Virus record (IMG/VR): IMGVR_UViG_3300045988_085176
Reading direction: 5' to 3' (one strand)
DNA from: a virus
DNA length: 57,021 nucleotides
Position 1 is the stretch's first letter. Each line of letters begins with the position of its first letter. The notes beneath the pieces were generated by a model. It was not told where the DNA came from. It saw only the letters and a program-made list of their open reading frames with translations, and searched no databases. Position numbers and translations under genes: made by a program. This document shows positions 19,530 through 32,473 of the stretch, in pieces.

Positions 19530-19556
19530 GGCACTTGGCACTGTGGCACTTGGCAC
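19530..19556 (-). promoter_or_regulatory. Doubled GTGCCAAGTGCC motif upstream of the TMP gene
   Basis: GGCACTTGGCAC at 19530-19541 and 19545-19556 (+ strand reading), 24 nt from the start codon. Confidence 0.8.
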
Positions 19557-19583
19557 TGAAAATATAAAGATCCCCGCTGCCTC

Positions 19584-19605
19584 CTTTATATTGAGATAGC
19601 GGGGA
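19584..19605. repeat. 22-bp inverted repeat, left copy (partner 20802-20823)
   Basis: CTTTATATTGAGATAGCGGGGA matches the reverse complement of 20802-20823 at 21 of 22 positions. Confidence 0.9.
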
Positions 19606-19639
19606 CTTCGATTTATTTAGTTATCTTTTCAAGATTTCC

Positions 19640-19680
19640 AAAAAATTTTACCCTCCGCCTATTTCTAAGCGGAGGGTAAA
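19640..19680 (-). terminator. Terminator of the membrane-protein moron
   Basis: TACCCTCCGC/GCGGAGGGTA hairpin followed on the - strand by AAATTTTTT. Confidence 0.7.
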
Positions 19681-19688
19681 TAAATTTA

Positions 19689-20138
19689 TTAAAGCCCAAT
19701 GGACATTCCCCAGAAAAATCCGACAATGAATTGCCATAGAAATCCAATAGCAAAAATCCAAATAACAATACGAACTAACAAAGGAATTTGCTTCCATGCG
19801 GACTTATTGTTTGTTTGTGTACCATTGTCATTTGTTCTGTCTGTTGCTACAACAACATTCGATATATAAGCTTCTATAACAGGCGTAATTCCCCAATTCG
19901 ATTTTATATAACATTTGATAAATATTTCATCCTGATCGGGGAAGGCCGAAAAATTCAACGTTTTGATTGCTTTCCGACCAACGCAAAACGAAATTGTGTG
20001 ATTTCCCTCTTCTACAAATAATTTTACACTTTTTCCGTTTTGAATTTTTGCAACCTCAGAAGAGTCTATTTTAATTATTATTCCACCCAATGCTCCAGCA
20101 CTTTTACTTTCTCTTTGTACTATTACAGGGCATCTCAT
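19689..20138 (-). CDS. Membrane-anchored hypothetical protein (moron)
   Basis: Start MRCPVIV with RBS GGGAGGGG. Soluble N-domain, C-terminal TMs IPLLVRIVIWIFAIGFLWQFIVGFFWGM. AT-rich. Confidence 0.65.
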   Translation of the reverse strand: MRCPVIVQRESKSAGALGGIIIKIDSSEVAKIQNGKSVKLFVEEGNHTISFCVGRKAIKTLNFSAFPDQDEIFIKCYIKSNWGITPVIEAYISNVVVATDRTNDNGTQTNNKSAWKQIPLLVRIVIWIFAIGFLWQFIVGFFWGMSIGL

Positions 20139-20372
20139 AAAATATCCCCTCCCCCCCAAATCTTACCATAATTCGAGGGAGGAAGCAATCAAAATCTCTG
20201 CTATCGCAATTAACTTAAGACATCGAATTTATTTTCGTCAAATCTCCATTTTCAGTTGACAAAAGAATTAACTTGTGATAAAGTTGAGAGATAATTTTTA
20301 AGACCATTTGAAAGCAGGGAAATATTATACTATTCACTCGCTAAGATTGCAAGATATTTTTTTCAAAATCGC

Positions 20373-20400
20373 TTGATTTTTTTTCCTAAAATACTATAAT
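20373..20400 (+). promoter_or_regulatory. Promoter of the candidate small RNA
   Basis: TTGATT, 16-nt spacer, TATAAT. Confidence 0.6.
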
Positions 20401-20406
20401 AAAAGT

Positions 20407-29532: not shown

Positions 29533-29554
29533 ATACGCGAGGAGATGATTTTGA

Positions 29555-30007
29555 GTGTACGGAGAAAAACAAAAAAATGGTCTTTTATCTGAATCGATGG
29601 TTTCTACCGAATTGCTGCGAAGGAACATCCCATTTTCCATCCCTTATGGTAGTTTTAACGAATATGATTTAGTCGTAGAAACATCGAGCGGATTCAAAGC
29701 GATACAGGTTAAAACCTGTTATTGGGACAATAGCAAAAATCGCTTTGTCGTCAGTTTATGCACGACACATAGGAGGGGCGGCGAAACTCTGAAAAATAAG
29801 AAATACAAATCCGATAGTTTTGATTATCTTATCGCCGTTTGCCACAATCCGATCGCGTATTATATTATCCCAATAGAGAAAGTCGCTGGACGAAGATCAT
29901 TGACTTTATATCCTTCCGGCGTTCCACAATCTTCTGTTGGGAATCCGCGATATGAAAGAATGGATAATTTAGAATCGTTTAATGGCTCATGGGAACAGCT
30001 CCTGTGA
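29555..30007 (+). CDS. PD-(D/E)XK endonuclease of the intron-associated (I-Ssp6803I-like) type, free-standing
   Basis: 150 aa. GLLSESMVSTELLRRNIPFSIPYG..EYDLVVETSSGFKAIQVKT fits the E...D...(Q/E)xK nuclease core. Confidence 0.55.
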   Translation: MYGEKQKNGLLSESMVSTELLRRNIPFSIPYGSFNEYDLVVETSSGFKAIQVKTCYWDNSKNRFVVSLCTTHRRGGETLKNKKYKSDSFDYLIAVCHNPIAYYIIPIEKVAGRRSLTLYPSGVPQSSVGNPRYERMDNLESFNGSWEQLL

Positions 30008-30009
30008 GC

Positions 30010-30703
30010 CATTCCCTATTCCGCCACCGCTCAATGGTGCCACCGCCCGCCTCATGCGGCGAGGAGAGGCATATGTGCGCTTCCGCTTAGATTGTCACGC
30101 CATATTTGGGAGGCCCGTTCACAGGCAAACACGGCAGTTTTCAGCGGGATAGCGCTTTATGGTCCAGCCATCTAGAATACAGTGGCTTTATCGCCGCTGG
30201 GCCGAGCAACCGGGGCAGGTCATAGCTGCCACCGCTTCCGCCTCCATGACAGGCGGGTGCCCTTTACCCTTCTCCGGTGCATAATTAGGCACTGTAAGCC
30301 TCCGGTATAGTGTCTTTCCACAGTCATAGGAACCTGCAAGATTTGAACTTGCGATCTCTACCCCTTTCGGTTAAGCGACGGATTCCACCCCGTCCCAGGT
30401 TCCGCATGCCCCCGTCTTTCCGGGGTGTCAGCTCCTTGGCCTTTGGAGCAAAAGACGTTGTTGTTTGGCTGGTCACAGTTTTCCTCTATGGCCTGCCGTC
30501 CGGTGTCGTCCCGGACTTCTCGCCTTACATACCAGGCTGGTTGCCGCATGGAGGGGGCGACCCTTCGGCCCGGATTCTTGGGCTGATTCACTCGTGCGGC
30601 ATATATCCCACACAGTAGGGGCAACGGCACTATTGCCGCCACCCCATCCGTGTGAAGGAGGTGAGAAAAAAGATGGTGGACAGGTGGTAGGAATCTACCT
30701 ACC
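30010..30703 (-). ncRNA. Large structured non-coding RNA candidate (~690 nt; ROOL/GOLLD-like or novel)
   Basis: Own consensus promoter. GC-rich with no credible ORF. Multiple GNRA-capped helices and an embedded tRNA-shaped module. tRNA genes lie beyond the antisense endonuclease gene. Confidence 0.6.
30328..30403 (-). other. tRNA-shaped module lacking an anticodon arm (inside the ncRNA)
   Basis: GGAACCT/AGGTTCC acceptor, GACG/CGTC D-stem with GG loop, GCAAG-TTCAAAT-CTTGC T-arm. The anticodon arm position holds a CC-GAAA-GG mini-hairpin. No CCA. Confidence 0.6.
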
Positions 30704-30709
30704 AGTTTT

Positions 30710-30738
30710 ATTATATCACAATATATAGCGCTTATCAA
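30710..30738 (-). promoter_or_regulatory. Consensus promoter of the large ncRNA
   Basis: On the - strand: TTGATA, 17-nt spacer, TATAAT, about 25 nt after the terL stop codon. Confidence 0.7.
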
Positions 30739-30763
30739 TAGTTTATACACAATATTTTGTATT

Positions 30764-32398
30764 TTAAAACGGACGCCGGAATACCTCCACCTTGTTTCCT
30801 TCAAGTTGTTGAACATACTCAGCAAACATTGCCCAAGCATCAGGAACATCATCGTGCTTATTTTTACCTGCCATTGTATACCCGCAAAGGAAATTTAACA
30901 TTCTCCTGTATTCTTTATCCTTTTTTATGACAGAGTTATCCTTAAACAAAACACGGTCTTTGATAAATGGGCTGTTGACTATGATCCGTGTCTCTTTGTT
31001 TGATGTAGTATATTTTGTTGTTATTTTTGCGATTCCCCCGGATTCTTTCACTTCTTTTTGAACTTTTTCTGCAACTTTACCACCAGCGCTGTTACTTTCA
31101 AACTGGCCCATCTGAGCCTTGTGCTGAAGTAGTTTTGACACTAATCGCGCCTCTACAACCTCCGGATTGCTATTATCGCATACCACATCTTCGCAGTAGA
31201 AGTCATTCCCATATTGATAGCAGATCGGCATGACGCAGTAATCAGTGCCCTTGTCTTTCGTATCGCACACAAACAGAATTGCATCTGGTTTTCTATCAGG
31301 AAGCTCAAAGTACCTGCGCAGCTCATCCTCGCTATACAACTGACCCTCGCGCTCGATAGGCTGGTTCATATAGAGAGCACGCCAACTTGCATCGTCCATT
31401 ACTTCGCGTTGCTCATGATAAAATGCCGTAGTAAACCCAGCGTGGTTCCCGTAGTCAAAGTTACTCTCGTCATTTTCATCTAGTGCTGGCATGACAATAA
31501 ACTCTGCCCGGTTACTTTCCCCGTAGGACTGTTCCAATCGTCCTATAACATCGTGGATTGACCATCGAGTCGCAATATGAAGCTCCTTGCAATCTCCAAT
31601 TTTCCGCTGCCGCAAATCTGTTGCGTATAGATTCCAGAGTTTATCCATTCGTTCCTTCGACAGTGCACTCTCCAGACCATCGACCAGATCATCACAATAA
31701 AGCAGATTTTCAGCTCGGACCTTACCTGCGTTTCCTGACCCAACAGACGAGAACTCCAATGTTGCAAATCGCTTTCCCTTCTTCGGGTCTGTTCCAAGAT
31801 CAATCATCATATCCTGGGCGTTGGTCTTGACCACCTTGACTACCGGAAACACATCATTCCAAAGATAATCCCCCTGCGGGTCCATAATACGAATACACTC
31901 CTCATATACTCCGCGCAAAAATGCGTTCGAATGAGATCCCCCCAGGATTGGCTTTTCTGGGTTTCTCCCTCCAAGCCAGGTCAGAAAGAACAGAGCCAAT
32001 GTGGTCTTTCCCACTCCAGGGGGAAGAGAAATCGACAGCAAGTCTAGTTCGTTATCTGCCAATCGTTGCAACGCCTTTGCAACCCTATATAACTGCTTCC
32101 GTCTGGGCAAGTAGAACCTCTTTGAAGGTTCGCGGTTCCACTCAATATACCGACAGTGTGCGTCAAAATCATACGGTGCGTCAAACAGCAGGCTCCGCTT
32201 GTTCAGTTCGAACATACGGATGCTTTTTTGTTCTGTGGCGAATTTCGCAGACAGCCGTCGCACTTCCTTGTTCCGCTCATGCGCCAGCGTAAAATCTTCT
32301 GGCTCCAGCAAACGCAAGCTATCAAAGGCGTCATTCAGTGCAGACGGGTCAGACAAGTCCCTCTGAAACGCCTTCTTTACCAACTCTTGAATTTCCAT
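30764..32398 (-). CDS. terL: Terminase large subunit
   Basis: Start MEIQELV behind AGGAGG. Walker A PPGVGKTT, Walker B LLYCDDLV. C-terminal nuclease-type acidic motifs. Confidence 0.9.
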   Translation of the reverse strand: MEIQELVKKAFQRDLSDPSALNDAFDSLRLLEPEDFTLAHERNKEVRRLSAKFATEQKSIRMFELNKRSLLFDAPYDFDAHCRYIEWNREPSKRFYLPRRKQLYRVAKALQRLADNELDLLSISLPPGVGKTTLALFFLTWLGGRNPEKPILGGSHSNAFLRGVYEECIRIMDPQGDYLWNDVFPVVKVVKTNAQDMMIDLGTDPKKGKRFATLEFSSVGSGNAGKVRAENLLYCDDLVDGLESALSKERMDKLWNLYATDLRQRKIGDCKELHIATRWSIHDVIGRLEQSYGESNRAEFIVMPALDENDESNFDYGNHAGFTTAFYHEQREVMDDASWRALYMNQPIEREGQLYSEDELRRYFELPDRKPDAILFVCDTKDKGTDYCVMPICYQYGNDFYCEDVVCDNSNPEVVEARLVSKLLQHKAQMGQFESNSAGGKVAEKVQKEVKESGGIAKITTKYTTSNKETRIIVNSPFIKDRVLFKDNSVIKKDKEYRRMLNFLCGYTMAGKNKHDDVPDAWAMFAEYVQQLEGNKVEVFRRPF

Positions 32399-32430
32399 GA
32401 AAAAAGTGCCTCCTATCCCGCAAGATAAAA

Positions 32431-32473
32431 GGCACTTGGCACTGTTCGCTCCATCTGGAGAGGCACTTGGCAC
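32431..32473 (-). promoter_or_regulatory. Doubled GTGCCAAGTGCC motif upstream of terL
   Basis: GGCACTTGGCAC at 32431-32442 and 32462-32473. The proximal copy pairs with the SD region (32404-32411 with 32430-37). Confidence 0.8.

Follow-up and report, generated by a model that had tools for sequence, protein, structure and literature searches.

Introduction

Com of phage Mu is a protein of 62 amino acids (aa) whose CCCC zinc finger binds RNA by itself (PMC6483171). SELEX with a Com zinc finger yielded NGAGNNCC(N)2-3GAGNNCCNN, a bipartite motif whose core is 5'-CC(N)2-3GAG-3', and the GA dinucleotide is reported to be crucial for Mu-type Com; in the mom mRNA the motifs (GAAUGCCUGCGAGCAUCCCACGGAG) adjoin and partly overlap a translation-inhibition hairpin that hides the start, and Com melts this hairpin (PMC6483171). 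Here we describe a viral DNA of 57,021 nucleotides (IMG/VR record IMGVR_UViG_3300045988_085176; the whole stretch is called the window below), in which a paired 12-nt repeat, reading GUGCCAAGUGCC in the mRNA, stands before four late genes, and in which a gene for a 55-aa zinc ribbon, probably a diverged member of the Com family, lies between two of them. To our knowledge, late-gene control in the temperate phages of gut Firmicutes is almost uncharted, and we know of no Com-family protein that acts as a multi-site antiterminator gating morphogenesis. The original prediction, which was made from the letters of the window, knew of no described phage element with this sequence; in design and in motif class, however, the repeat resembles the Com-mom system of phage Mu (PMC6483171).

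Paired repeats stand before four late genes

The window as a whole is that of a temperate siphophage, in which a DnaB-like helicase, an integrase and a repressor paired with an ImmA-like protein are encoded, and its late genes are all on the - strand, as are the genes around all four repeat sites. A scan of the + strand found seven exact copies and one copy with a single mismatch of GGCACTTGGCAC (coding-strand reading GTGCCAAGTGCC), at 19530, 19545, 22165, 22180 (GGCACTCGGCAC), 28979, 29014, 32431 and 32462, and the eight copies make four pairs, all confined to the structural module at 19.5-32.5 kb. The opposite strand of the window has no copy of the 12-mer, and dinucleotide shuffles gave a mean of 0.20 and a maximum of 3 copies, so that eight were reached in none of 100. 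A GGCAC pair at 2494/2509 was set aside as coding sequence. The genes behind the four pairs, each recognized by a PHROG match, are terL, portal, major tail and the tape measure protein (TMP), and their coordinates are collected in Table 1 with those of the other features. Megablast of the region against GenBank phages returned only two short, unrelated Flavonifractor phage matches.

Each 12-mer consists of two G(U/A)GCC units, and the general layout of a site is a stop codon, 12-14 nt, [GUGCC-RA-GUGCC]-spacer-[GUGCC-AA-GUGCC], a hairpin and the start codon. The spacer between the two 12-mers is 3 nt at the tail and TMP sites and a stem-loop of 19 or 23 nt at the terL and portal sites. Three sites have gaps of 12, 14 and 12 nt between the preceding stop codon and their first unit, and the TMP site has one of 132 nt; the last unit lies 32, 62, 29 and 23 nt before the start codon of terL, portal, major tail and TMP, respectively. 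Thus the copy count, the pairing and the single orientation given in the original prediction are borne out by the scan and the shuffles, its gaps of 13-15 and 24-63 nt lie close to the measured 12-14 and 23-62 nt, and three of the four sites do stand close behind a stop codon, the TMP site being the fourth.

Table 1. Features of the repeat system in the window, by position on the + strand numbering
Feature	Coordinates	Strand	Remarks
terL	30764-32398	-	true ATG 32398; PHROG match
Portal	27426-28916	-	GTG start; PHROG match
Major tail protein	21617-22135	-	PHROG match
Tape measure protein (TMP)	15859-19506	-	PHROG match
terL site	32431..32473	-	12-mer A 32473-32462, 19-nt spacer 32461-32443, 12-mer B 32442-32431
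terL terminator and Shine-Dalgarno-sequestering hairpin	32399..32437	-	AAGUGCCUUUUAUC-UUGCGG-GAUAGGAGGCACUU at 32437-32404, then UUUUC-AUG
Portal site	28979..29025	-	12-mer A 29025-29014, 23-nt spacer 29013-28991, 12-mer B 28990-28979
Portal intrinsic terminator	28931..28985	-	20-bp stem GUGCCGAUCAGUUACCGAGG-AAU-CCUCGGUAGUUGGUCGGCAU, then U-run (UUUUUG); z = -6.7
Major-tail site	22165..22191	-	four tandem units GUGCCGAGUGCC-UUU-GUGCCAAGUGCC; 12 nt past the stop of the tail-terminator gene
Major-tail hairpin	22136..22169	-	GUGCCUCCCUA-AAAAAU-UAGGAGGUAC, then UAUUUUU; ATG 22135
TMP site	19530..19556	-	four tandem units GUGCCAAGUGCC-ACA-GUGCCAAGUGCC
TMP Shine-Dalgarno-sequestering hairpin	19507..19549	-	GUGCCAC (unit 2) with GUGGCAC 19514-19508; z = -4.1
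Candidate trans factor, 55-aa CPVC...CKAC zinc ribbon	29040-29207	-	MKIDIYCPVCAAAGINHGKGRLLMQVDSKAVGVVYPYCKACKKNIKIELKGEKSA; co-occurrence, subtype covariation, Com profile chain, AlphaFold2 model
Sigma-70-like promoter	30710..30738	-	TTGATA-17-TATAAT with extended TG; just past the terL stop; 11/12 match

The last unit of each site forms one arm of a hairpin

At all four sites the last unit is the 5' arm of a hairpin. The hairpin before terL has 15 pairs, with the last GUGCC in its 5' arm and the Shine-Dalgarno (SD) sequence of terL (GGAGG) in its 3' arm, and the minimum free energy and centroid structures agree. The major-tail hairpin has 10 bp and holds the SD sequence (AGGAGG) within its 3' arm. 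The 20-bp terminator stem of the portal site includes the GCC of the last unit, and the SD sequence (GGAGG) and the GTG start are downstream of the hairpin and outside it, which makes this hairpin a terminator only. The TMP hairpin encloses the SD sequence AAGGUGGUG and ends 1 nt before the AUG, no U-run follows it, and in an alternative form the last unit pairs with GGCAC. Hence a G+C-rich hairpin followed by a U-run, as in an intrinsic terminator, is found at terL, portal and major tail, and the SD sequence is buried in the 3' arm at terL, major tail and TMP. The pairings that the original prediction described at terL, tail and TMP were all found, and at portal the motif does not merely abut the terminator stem, as had been thought, part of its last unit being inside the stem.

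The two long spacers are themselves hairpins, CUCC-AGAU-GGAG followed by a CGAACA tail at the terL site, and UCCGGGC-AAU-GCCUGGA followed by CGAAGC at the portal site, which begins 14 nt past the stop codon of the zinc-ribbon gene. Rfam searches of the whole window (gathering thresholds) and of 19000-33000 (E <= 1) matched none of the four sites.

Directly 5' of the first unit, terL and portal have the same flank, UAUAGUUUA (32474-32484 and 29026-29036, - strand), as if either site had arisen as a copy of the other or the element extended into the flank. In its place are CUGACA at the tail site and UUUUCA at the TMP site, and in many relatives the tail site keeps GGGCUGACA.

The element recurs in many phage contigs with an RNA signature

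An exact scan of IMG/VR for the paired 12-mer returned at least 119 loci, in which the flanks were highly diverse and the design was constant. When the unit was generalized to G[AU]GCC with a period of 7-8 nt, 159 non-redundant instances were obtained from hundreds of uncultured Clostridia phage contigs, and in this collection a site has two or four units. The unit expression misses degenerate sites, so that the true number of loci with the motif may be higher than any count given here. In 153 of the 159 instances the last unit is paired with sequence downstream of it, and five or more U residues follow within the next 9 nt in 125, compared with 10 of 159 in a control in which the downstream part was shuffled. 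Moreover, the 3' arm changes along with the unit type: the base at position 2 of the unit forms U-A with its partner in 110 instances, A-U in 26 and U-G in 13, with no mismatch among the paired ones and with four unpaired in the fold. Over 2.34 Mb in 136 unique loci, the clusters lie on the coding strand in 265 cases and on the other strand in 3. A hairpin right after unit 2 is formed by every one of the 22 unique long spacers, with about 10 unrelated stem sequences, and units 1-3, which are outside the terminal hairpin, are conserved base for base across very divergent flanks.

The targets in this collection were the four kinds seen in the window and a scaffold-like gene. terL is the target in 52 instances, with a hairpin and U-run in 51 of 51, and portal in 40, with a terminator in 35 of 39. 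Among the 13 major-tail instances a U-run is present in 10 of 12, and eight further instances precede a scaffold-like protein. Only one of the 14 TMP instances has a U-run, and at these sites a median of 1 nt separates the end of the hairpin from the start codon, compared with 7 nt for terL and 7 nt for major tail in the relatives. The targets are thus a regulon of morphogenesis genes, and the TMP sites are sites of SD sequestration only. Because the hairpin with its U-run is conserved, the 3' arm covaries, the element is strand specific and the spacer hairpins covary, a cis-acting RNA is the favoured reading, and we hold it very probable indeed that the four sites of the window are functional RNA hairpin or terminator elements under selection.

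Two degenerate sites were seen before terL. Locus L283 (~3900-3990) has only CACC-AA-GAGUG at the foot of a terminator, and L280 (~3920-4000) has GAGCC-AA-GUGUU...CC-AA-GUGCC, which hints that the minimal core is CC-N2-G(A/U)G. Three further loci (L039, L116 and L118) have four tandem units without a terminator in repetitive or coding-like flanks; these are probably chance or unrelated repeats and were not used. In the literature, searches for the 12-mer found chance primer matches only, and searches for phage antitermination with zinc or Com-like regulators found no such system described.

A zinc-ribbon gene accompanies the element and varies with it

When all open reading frames (ORFs) of the window were compared by tblastn with the motif loci, the zinc ribbon was the most widely shared after terL (64 loci, 41-100% identity). 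Its family consists of proteins of 44-60 aa with CxxC...CxxC, and the gene was present in every motif locus seen that covers the terL-portal junction, as read off the table and not systematically counted; this co-occurrence persists where terL is only 33-40% identical. From the side of the protein, at least one motif cluster was present in 134 of the 136 unique loci that were fetched through it. Among 28 terL relatives of locus L126, no locus had the zinc-ribbon gene without the motif, and L283 and L304-307 were scored as having neither. The gene is not fixed in one place: in the L197-L245 group it is the next gene after terL, and in L284-286 it lies ~2 kb further downstream. Homologues were found in prophages of Flavonifractor, Anaeromassilibacillus, Ruminococcaceae, Ruminiclostridium, Lachnospiraceae and Porcipelethomonas, and tblastn of the protein against GenBank phages gave no match.

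In the window protein the two knuckles are CPVC (residues 7-10) and CKAC (38-41). In 30 sequences from three alignments with several members in common, C7, C10 and C38 do not vary, whereas Cys or His occurs at C41, and in a larger, partly low-quality metagenome set one sequence has a substitution at C10. The AlphaFold2 model of the window protein is a beta-rich ribbon with a predicted local distance difference test score of 92.

The protein subtype and the unit type change together. The long form, which has (Y/F)PYCK and is the type of the window, goes with GUGCC only in 49 cases, with mixed units in 10, with GAGCC only in 1 and with none in 2. The short form (CPVCGKRLFDAD...AYCKRCK) has GAGCC in all of its loci (9/9), where GGCUC is the sequence of the terminator's 3' arm. 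In L284-286, GAGCGCC-AA-GAGCGCC and a terminator stand before terL, and a classical Com gene (...IRCPKCNKKLLNLSGQAEMPCPRCK...) lies 2 kb away. Hence three protein subtypes match three unit types: classical Com with GAGNNCC, the short form with GAGCC and the long form with GUGCC.

Other partners were considered. The original prediction had suggested the small proteins at 4665-4925 and 37674-37988 as factors, and it is the gene at 29040-29207 (-) that accompanies the motif, not these two: the ORF at 37674-37988 matches phrog_1709, of function unknown, and occurs in only 9 loci, and that at 4665-4988 has weak helix-turn-helix (HTH) matches. The terS product (37142-37747) was rejected as a binder of pac-like repeats, since the sites are RNA-structured and strand-specific, and an antisense or small RNA partner was rejected because there is no complementary copy on the coding strand within the window.

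The zinc ribbon is a probable relative of phage Mu Com

Profile comparison by hhalign connects the subtypes in a chain. The long form aligns with the short form at 98.4% probability (E 7e-15, 46 columns), the short form with classical Com at 96.1% (E 3e-9) and the long form with Com at 83% (E 9e-6), whereas the controls gave 1.4% for P2 Ogr, 8% for rubredoxin and 0.2% for L31. Both the short form and Mu Com match phrog_5602 and phrog_6417 (short form to phrog_6417, E 1e-4). The L284 protein matches PHROG 6417 ('translational regulator', E 3e-8) and 13819 (gpCom, E 3e-4), families that Mu Com also matches, and in BLASTP it is 43% identical to Mu Com over the zinc finger. Moreover, the Joint Genome Institute label 'phage FluMu protein Com' stands on a protein 79% identical to the short form. 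The profiles thus link the zinc-ribbon protein stepwise to Com, of which it is probably a diverged relative.

A Com-like gene also occurs apart from the element. In locus L282 a classical Com-like ORF (phrog_6417, E 4e-8) near 7233 and terL are on opposite strands, and terL is not preceded by the repeat element; the Com-like protein of this locus may have a different, mom-like target. L305 has neither a Com-like gene nor the repeat element.

A model for the control of the morphogenesis genes

We propose that a Com-family activator and antiterminator would gate the morphogenesis genes, and we put the probability of the full mechanism at about 0.65. The default state would be OFF, because the last-unit hairpin is a terminator or buries the SD sequence: transcription would stop after the upstream cistron, or the ribosome site would be hidden. 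The Com-like protein of the window would bind the units on the nascent RNA as it emerges from the polymerase, presumably with one protein per 12-mer to judge from the CC-N2-GUG core, since every 12-mer includes a core of the Com type, CC-N2-3-G(A/U)G. The bound last unit would then stay single-stranded, the terminator or SD-sequestering hairpin could not form, the polymerase would read through and the SD sequence would be exposed. Since the gene of the factor lies between the terL and portal switches, a feed-forward or positive loop may result, which would commit the phage to making terminase, portal, tail tube and tape measure; in simpler relatives, where the gene is directly after terL, the loop would be a positive one. 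From the sigma-70-like promoter just past the terL stop, the tRNA cluster and the zinc-ribbon gene might be transcribed whatever the state of the terL terminator. The position of a site directly on each terminator argues for a local, non-processive action.

In this model we infer activation by binding, that is, the contact between protein and units, the opening and not the stabilization of the hairpin, and the loop, and we take the sign of the effect from the geometry of the sites and from Com. The original prediction had offered a cis-RNA element controlled by a factor that binds GUGCC repeats, of which the RNA element stands on the comparative evidence, and the binding of the factor and its effect are deduced. 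A wider proposal, to which we give even odds, is that, across a large group of uncultured siphophages of gut Clostridia, this diverged branch of Com may be the master gate through which virion morphogenesis is controlled, acting as a local multi-site antiterminator and translational activator on up to five terminators of the late operon, with an RNA code shifted stepwise through GAGNNCC, GAGCC and GUGCC, which would give orthogonal pairs of a ~45-aa protein and a 12-nt RNA.

Several points weigh against the model. The link of the window protein to Com is transitive only: the window protein had no significant match in Pfam, PHROG or NCBIfam, and naming by Pfam, NCBIfam and PADLOC-type models gave only sub-threshold generic zinc-ribbon ones. 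Foldseek with its confident AlphaFold2 model found only uncharacterized metagenomic relatives labelled 'cysteine-rich'. The PDB has no structure of Com with which the model could be compared, and small zinc ribbons match spuriously, as in the YacG control, which reached 60% probability over only 13 columns of the first knuckle. The window units have GUG, whereas Mu Com reads GAG with a GA reported to be crucial (PMC6483171), so that a changed specificity must be assumed. The motif of Com is described as lying in the loop of a hairpin when it is bound, whereas the window units are predicted to be single-stranded or in a stem. The gene of the factor is downstream of the terL terminator that its product would open, and the TMP site lies behind two moron terminators without units (19680-19647 and ~19611-19572), beyond the reach of a local antiterminator. 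Finally, the counts are phylogenetically non-independent, many of the loci coming from one metagenome study (3300045988), and the co-occurrence partly comes from the shared ancestry of a single terL-Zn-portal module.

Alternative explanations

The 12-mers might instead be DNA sites of a late transcriptional activator of the P2 Ogr, P4 Delta or Mu C type, whose zinc finger would bind double-stranded DNA at late promoters; the original prediction, too, had named a repeated late-activator DNA site. Four sites before four late blocks recall the four Ogr-dependent late promoters of P2, one family member has a Pfam Ogr_Delta match at E 0.007, below the cut-off, and a restart promoter would be plausible where a terminator is directly upstream of the motif, as at the TMP site, or where ccccgccacagggcgggcg precedes terL, as in relatives. 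We nevertheless consider this very unlikely. At three sites the last unit is only 23-32 nt from the start codon, which leaves no room for a promoter, and no conserved -10/-35 follows the motif; the spacings of 3, 19 and 23 nt have no helical phasing, and the long spacers are covarying RNA hairpins. Moreover, the reverse complement of the unit is kept downstream and switches with the unit type, a U-run terminator right after a promoter would be self-defeating, and the family is unlike P2 Ogr (1.4% in hhalign, compared with 81-96% for Com). A second reading dispenses with a dedicated factor and takes the sites as a self-spreading intergenic cassette, or as a recombination hotspot at module boundaries, in which the GUGCC copies serve as alternative 5' arms for a single 3' arm. 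The common upstream flank UAUAGUUUA of the terL and portal sites suggests copying, and the sites stand at mosaic module junctions with flanks that differ widely between contigs; yet units 1-3, outside the hairpin, are base-perfect across these divergent flanks, unit count and period are constrained, and the co-occurrence and covariation with the zinc-finger gene would stay unexplained, so that this reading is hardly tenable.

That the RNA element is real but is read by a host factor or RNase, for processing, stability or cistron-specific mRNA ends, with the zinc ribbon as a mere passenger, is improbable to our judgement. It would agree with an exact 12-mer kept across phages whose terL proteins are only 32-40% identical, and with sites at cistron boundaries 12-14 nt past stop codons. 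A common host factor, however, does not predict that the unit sequence shifts in step with the phage zinc-finger subtype, the gene still co-occurs with the element where it is placed elsewhere (L197-L245, L284-286), and its family is related to a sequence-specific RNA binder with the same class of motif. The last alternative accepts binding by the Com-like protein and reverses its sign: like TRAP, T4 RegA or the coat proteins that bind operators, the protein would attenuate transcription or repress translation, and would so restrain or balance the expression of terL, portal, tail tube and TMP late in infection, or keep these genes silent in the lysogen. TRAP and other attenuation proteins that bind repeats do act negatively, and negative autoregulation would fit a gene that follows the terL terminator and immediately precedes the portal terminator. 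But there is no alternative antiterminator structure for the binding to disrupt, and the bound units are themselves the 5' arm of the hairpin, so that occupancy should block it; essential structural genes behind strong terminators (15-20 bp and a U-run) need an activator, and Com, the only characterized relative, activates by melting the adjacent hairpin (PMC6483171). A negative role thus appears unlikely, and activation by the Com-like protein is the reading that we prefer.

Neighbouring features of the window

The stretch from terL to the zinc-finger gene contains a tRNA cluster (29234-30403, -). Rfam places tRNAs at 29237-29307 and 29397-29467, and ARAGORN gives tRNA-Met(cat) at 29234-29307 and tRNA-Arg(ccg) at 30328-30403, so that the tools disagree on two of three; in a related prophage (L120) tRNAs adjoin the zinc-finger gene too. 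In the same terL-portal gap, antisense to the late operon, is a gene of a PD-(D/E)XK endonuclease (29555-30007, +; Pfam PDDEXK_5, E 1e-17) with its own sigma-70-like promoter (29504-29532, +), and the ORF-poor stretch at 30010-30330 has a weak sub-threshold match to the cow-rumen-3 RNA (30103-30230, E 0.07). The endonuclease region may be a mobile insertion.

A moron-like insertion (19565-20760, -) separates the tail chaperone genes from TMP. Within it are a promoter that fits the sigma-70 consensus perfectly (TTGACA-17-TATAAT, 20760-20732), several small ORFs, of which one is weakly lipoprotein-like (19689-20159), and the two strong terminators already mentioned, which stand just before the repeats of the TMP site. 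In the packaging module, the terS-like gene (37142-37747) and terL are ~5 kb apart because of the genes between them, an unusual distance: a 277-aa serine recombinase/invertase-like ORF (phrog_95) and a restriction-endonuclease-like ORF at 33480-34843 (-), and in addition YjcQ and two DUF551 proteins. At the lysis-proximal end, a full-length Rfam RAGATH-31 match (4196-4249, -; 83 bits, gathering threshold 71.8) is a candidate small RNA of unknown function between a 162-aa ORF (3533-4021) and the small HTH-like ORF (4665-4988).

Implications

The phages with the zinc-ribbon protein are uncultured, and the protein occurs in no GenBank phage. If the model is true, their terminase, portal and tail genes would be silent in the lysogen and would be released together, with a single protein of ~50 aa opening every terminator lock. 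Com would then grow from a one-gene curiosity of Mu into a widespread family of regulators with a readable series of protein-RNA specificities, and the very small, apparently orthogonal pairs of protein and operator, coupled to terminators, could serve as parts for synthetic biology in Clostridia. For annotation, tandem G(A/U)G(N0-2)CC repeats by a hairpin together with a ~50-aa CxxC...CxxC ORF would indicate a Com-type switch.

Comparison with known systems

HutP reads two sets of NAG triplets split by a spacer, and TRAP reads (G/U)AG repeats with spacers of 2-3 nt. In HutP, in LicT/SacY with the ribonucleic antiterminator, in GlpP, PyrR and TRAP, a protein reads short RNA units that overlap one arm of a terminator, as proposed here. 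The zinc ribbon of the window is of a fold unrelated to HutP, TRAP and the CAT-PRD proteins, and no small-molecule or phosphotransferase system signal is evident; moreover, unlike the Firmicutes antiterminators, the window system is encoded by the phage and has several terminators within one operon. Lambda N/nut, Q and HK022 put resemble it in that antitermination opens late or delayed genes through cis RNA signals ahead of terminators. There, however, one loading site modifies the polymerase for kilobases, whereas in the window a site stands on each terminator, and the window sites have no boxA/boxB or put-like structure and, as noted, no Rfam match.

Short asymmetric intergenic repeats near stop and start codons in one orientation are also known from mycobacteriophages, as the stoperators of cluster A and the start-associated sequences of cluster K. 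The stoperators are DNA sites of the immunity repressor and occur genome-wide, whereas the window motif is limited to the structural module, has covarying RNA hairpins and has a zinc-finger companion. P2 Ogr and P4 Delta share with the window a small phage zinc finger and four late gene blocks, but Ogr binds DNA dyads at about -55 of promoters, and in the window the last unit is only 23-62 nt from the start codon.

The closest system is Com-mom. Com and, by prediction, the window protein are small CCCC zinc fingers, in a family of ~45-62 aa, with the four cysteines in the N-terminal part; in both systems a bipartite motif, of the GAG(N0-2)CC-(N)2-3-GAG(N0-2)CC class or, in the window, its putative GUGCC variant, adjoins or overlaps a hairpin that buries the SD sequence or the start codon, and the regulator gene is directly upstream of a target on the same strand. 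The sister clades carry GAGCGCC-AA-GAGCGCC and GAGCC-N3-GAGCC, which fit the Com motif, and the window has CC-AA-GUG with U for A; the NN of GAGNNCC is deleted in two clades, and the A is changed to U in the clade of the window. The differences lie in use. Mu Com controls one accessory gene, mom, of a DNA modification enzyme, at the level of translation only, whereas the window element has four or five core morphogenesis targets (terL, portal, major tail and TMP, with a scaffold-like one in relatives), no mom-like gene adjoining any window site, and most of its target hairpins are full intrinsic terminators, which implies transcription antitermination. The window protein is a diverged long form (YPYCK) with an insertion of 5-9 residues and without the disordered C-terminal tail of Com, and the hosts are Clostridia here and Proteobacteria for Com. 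The proposed Com-type regulon of morphogenesis genes is not described in the searchable literature, and its design is akin to that of Com-mom.

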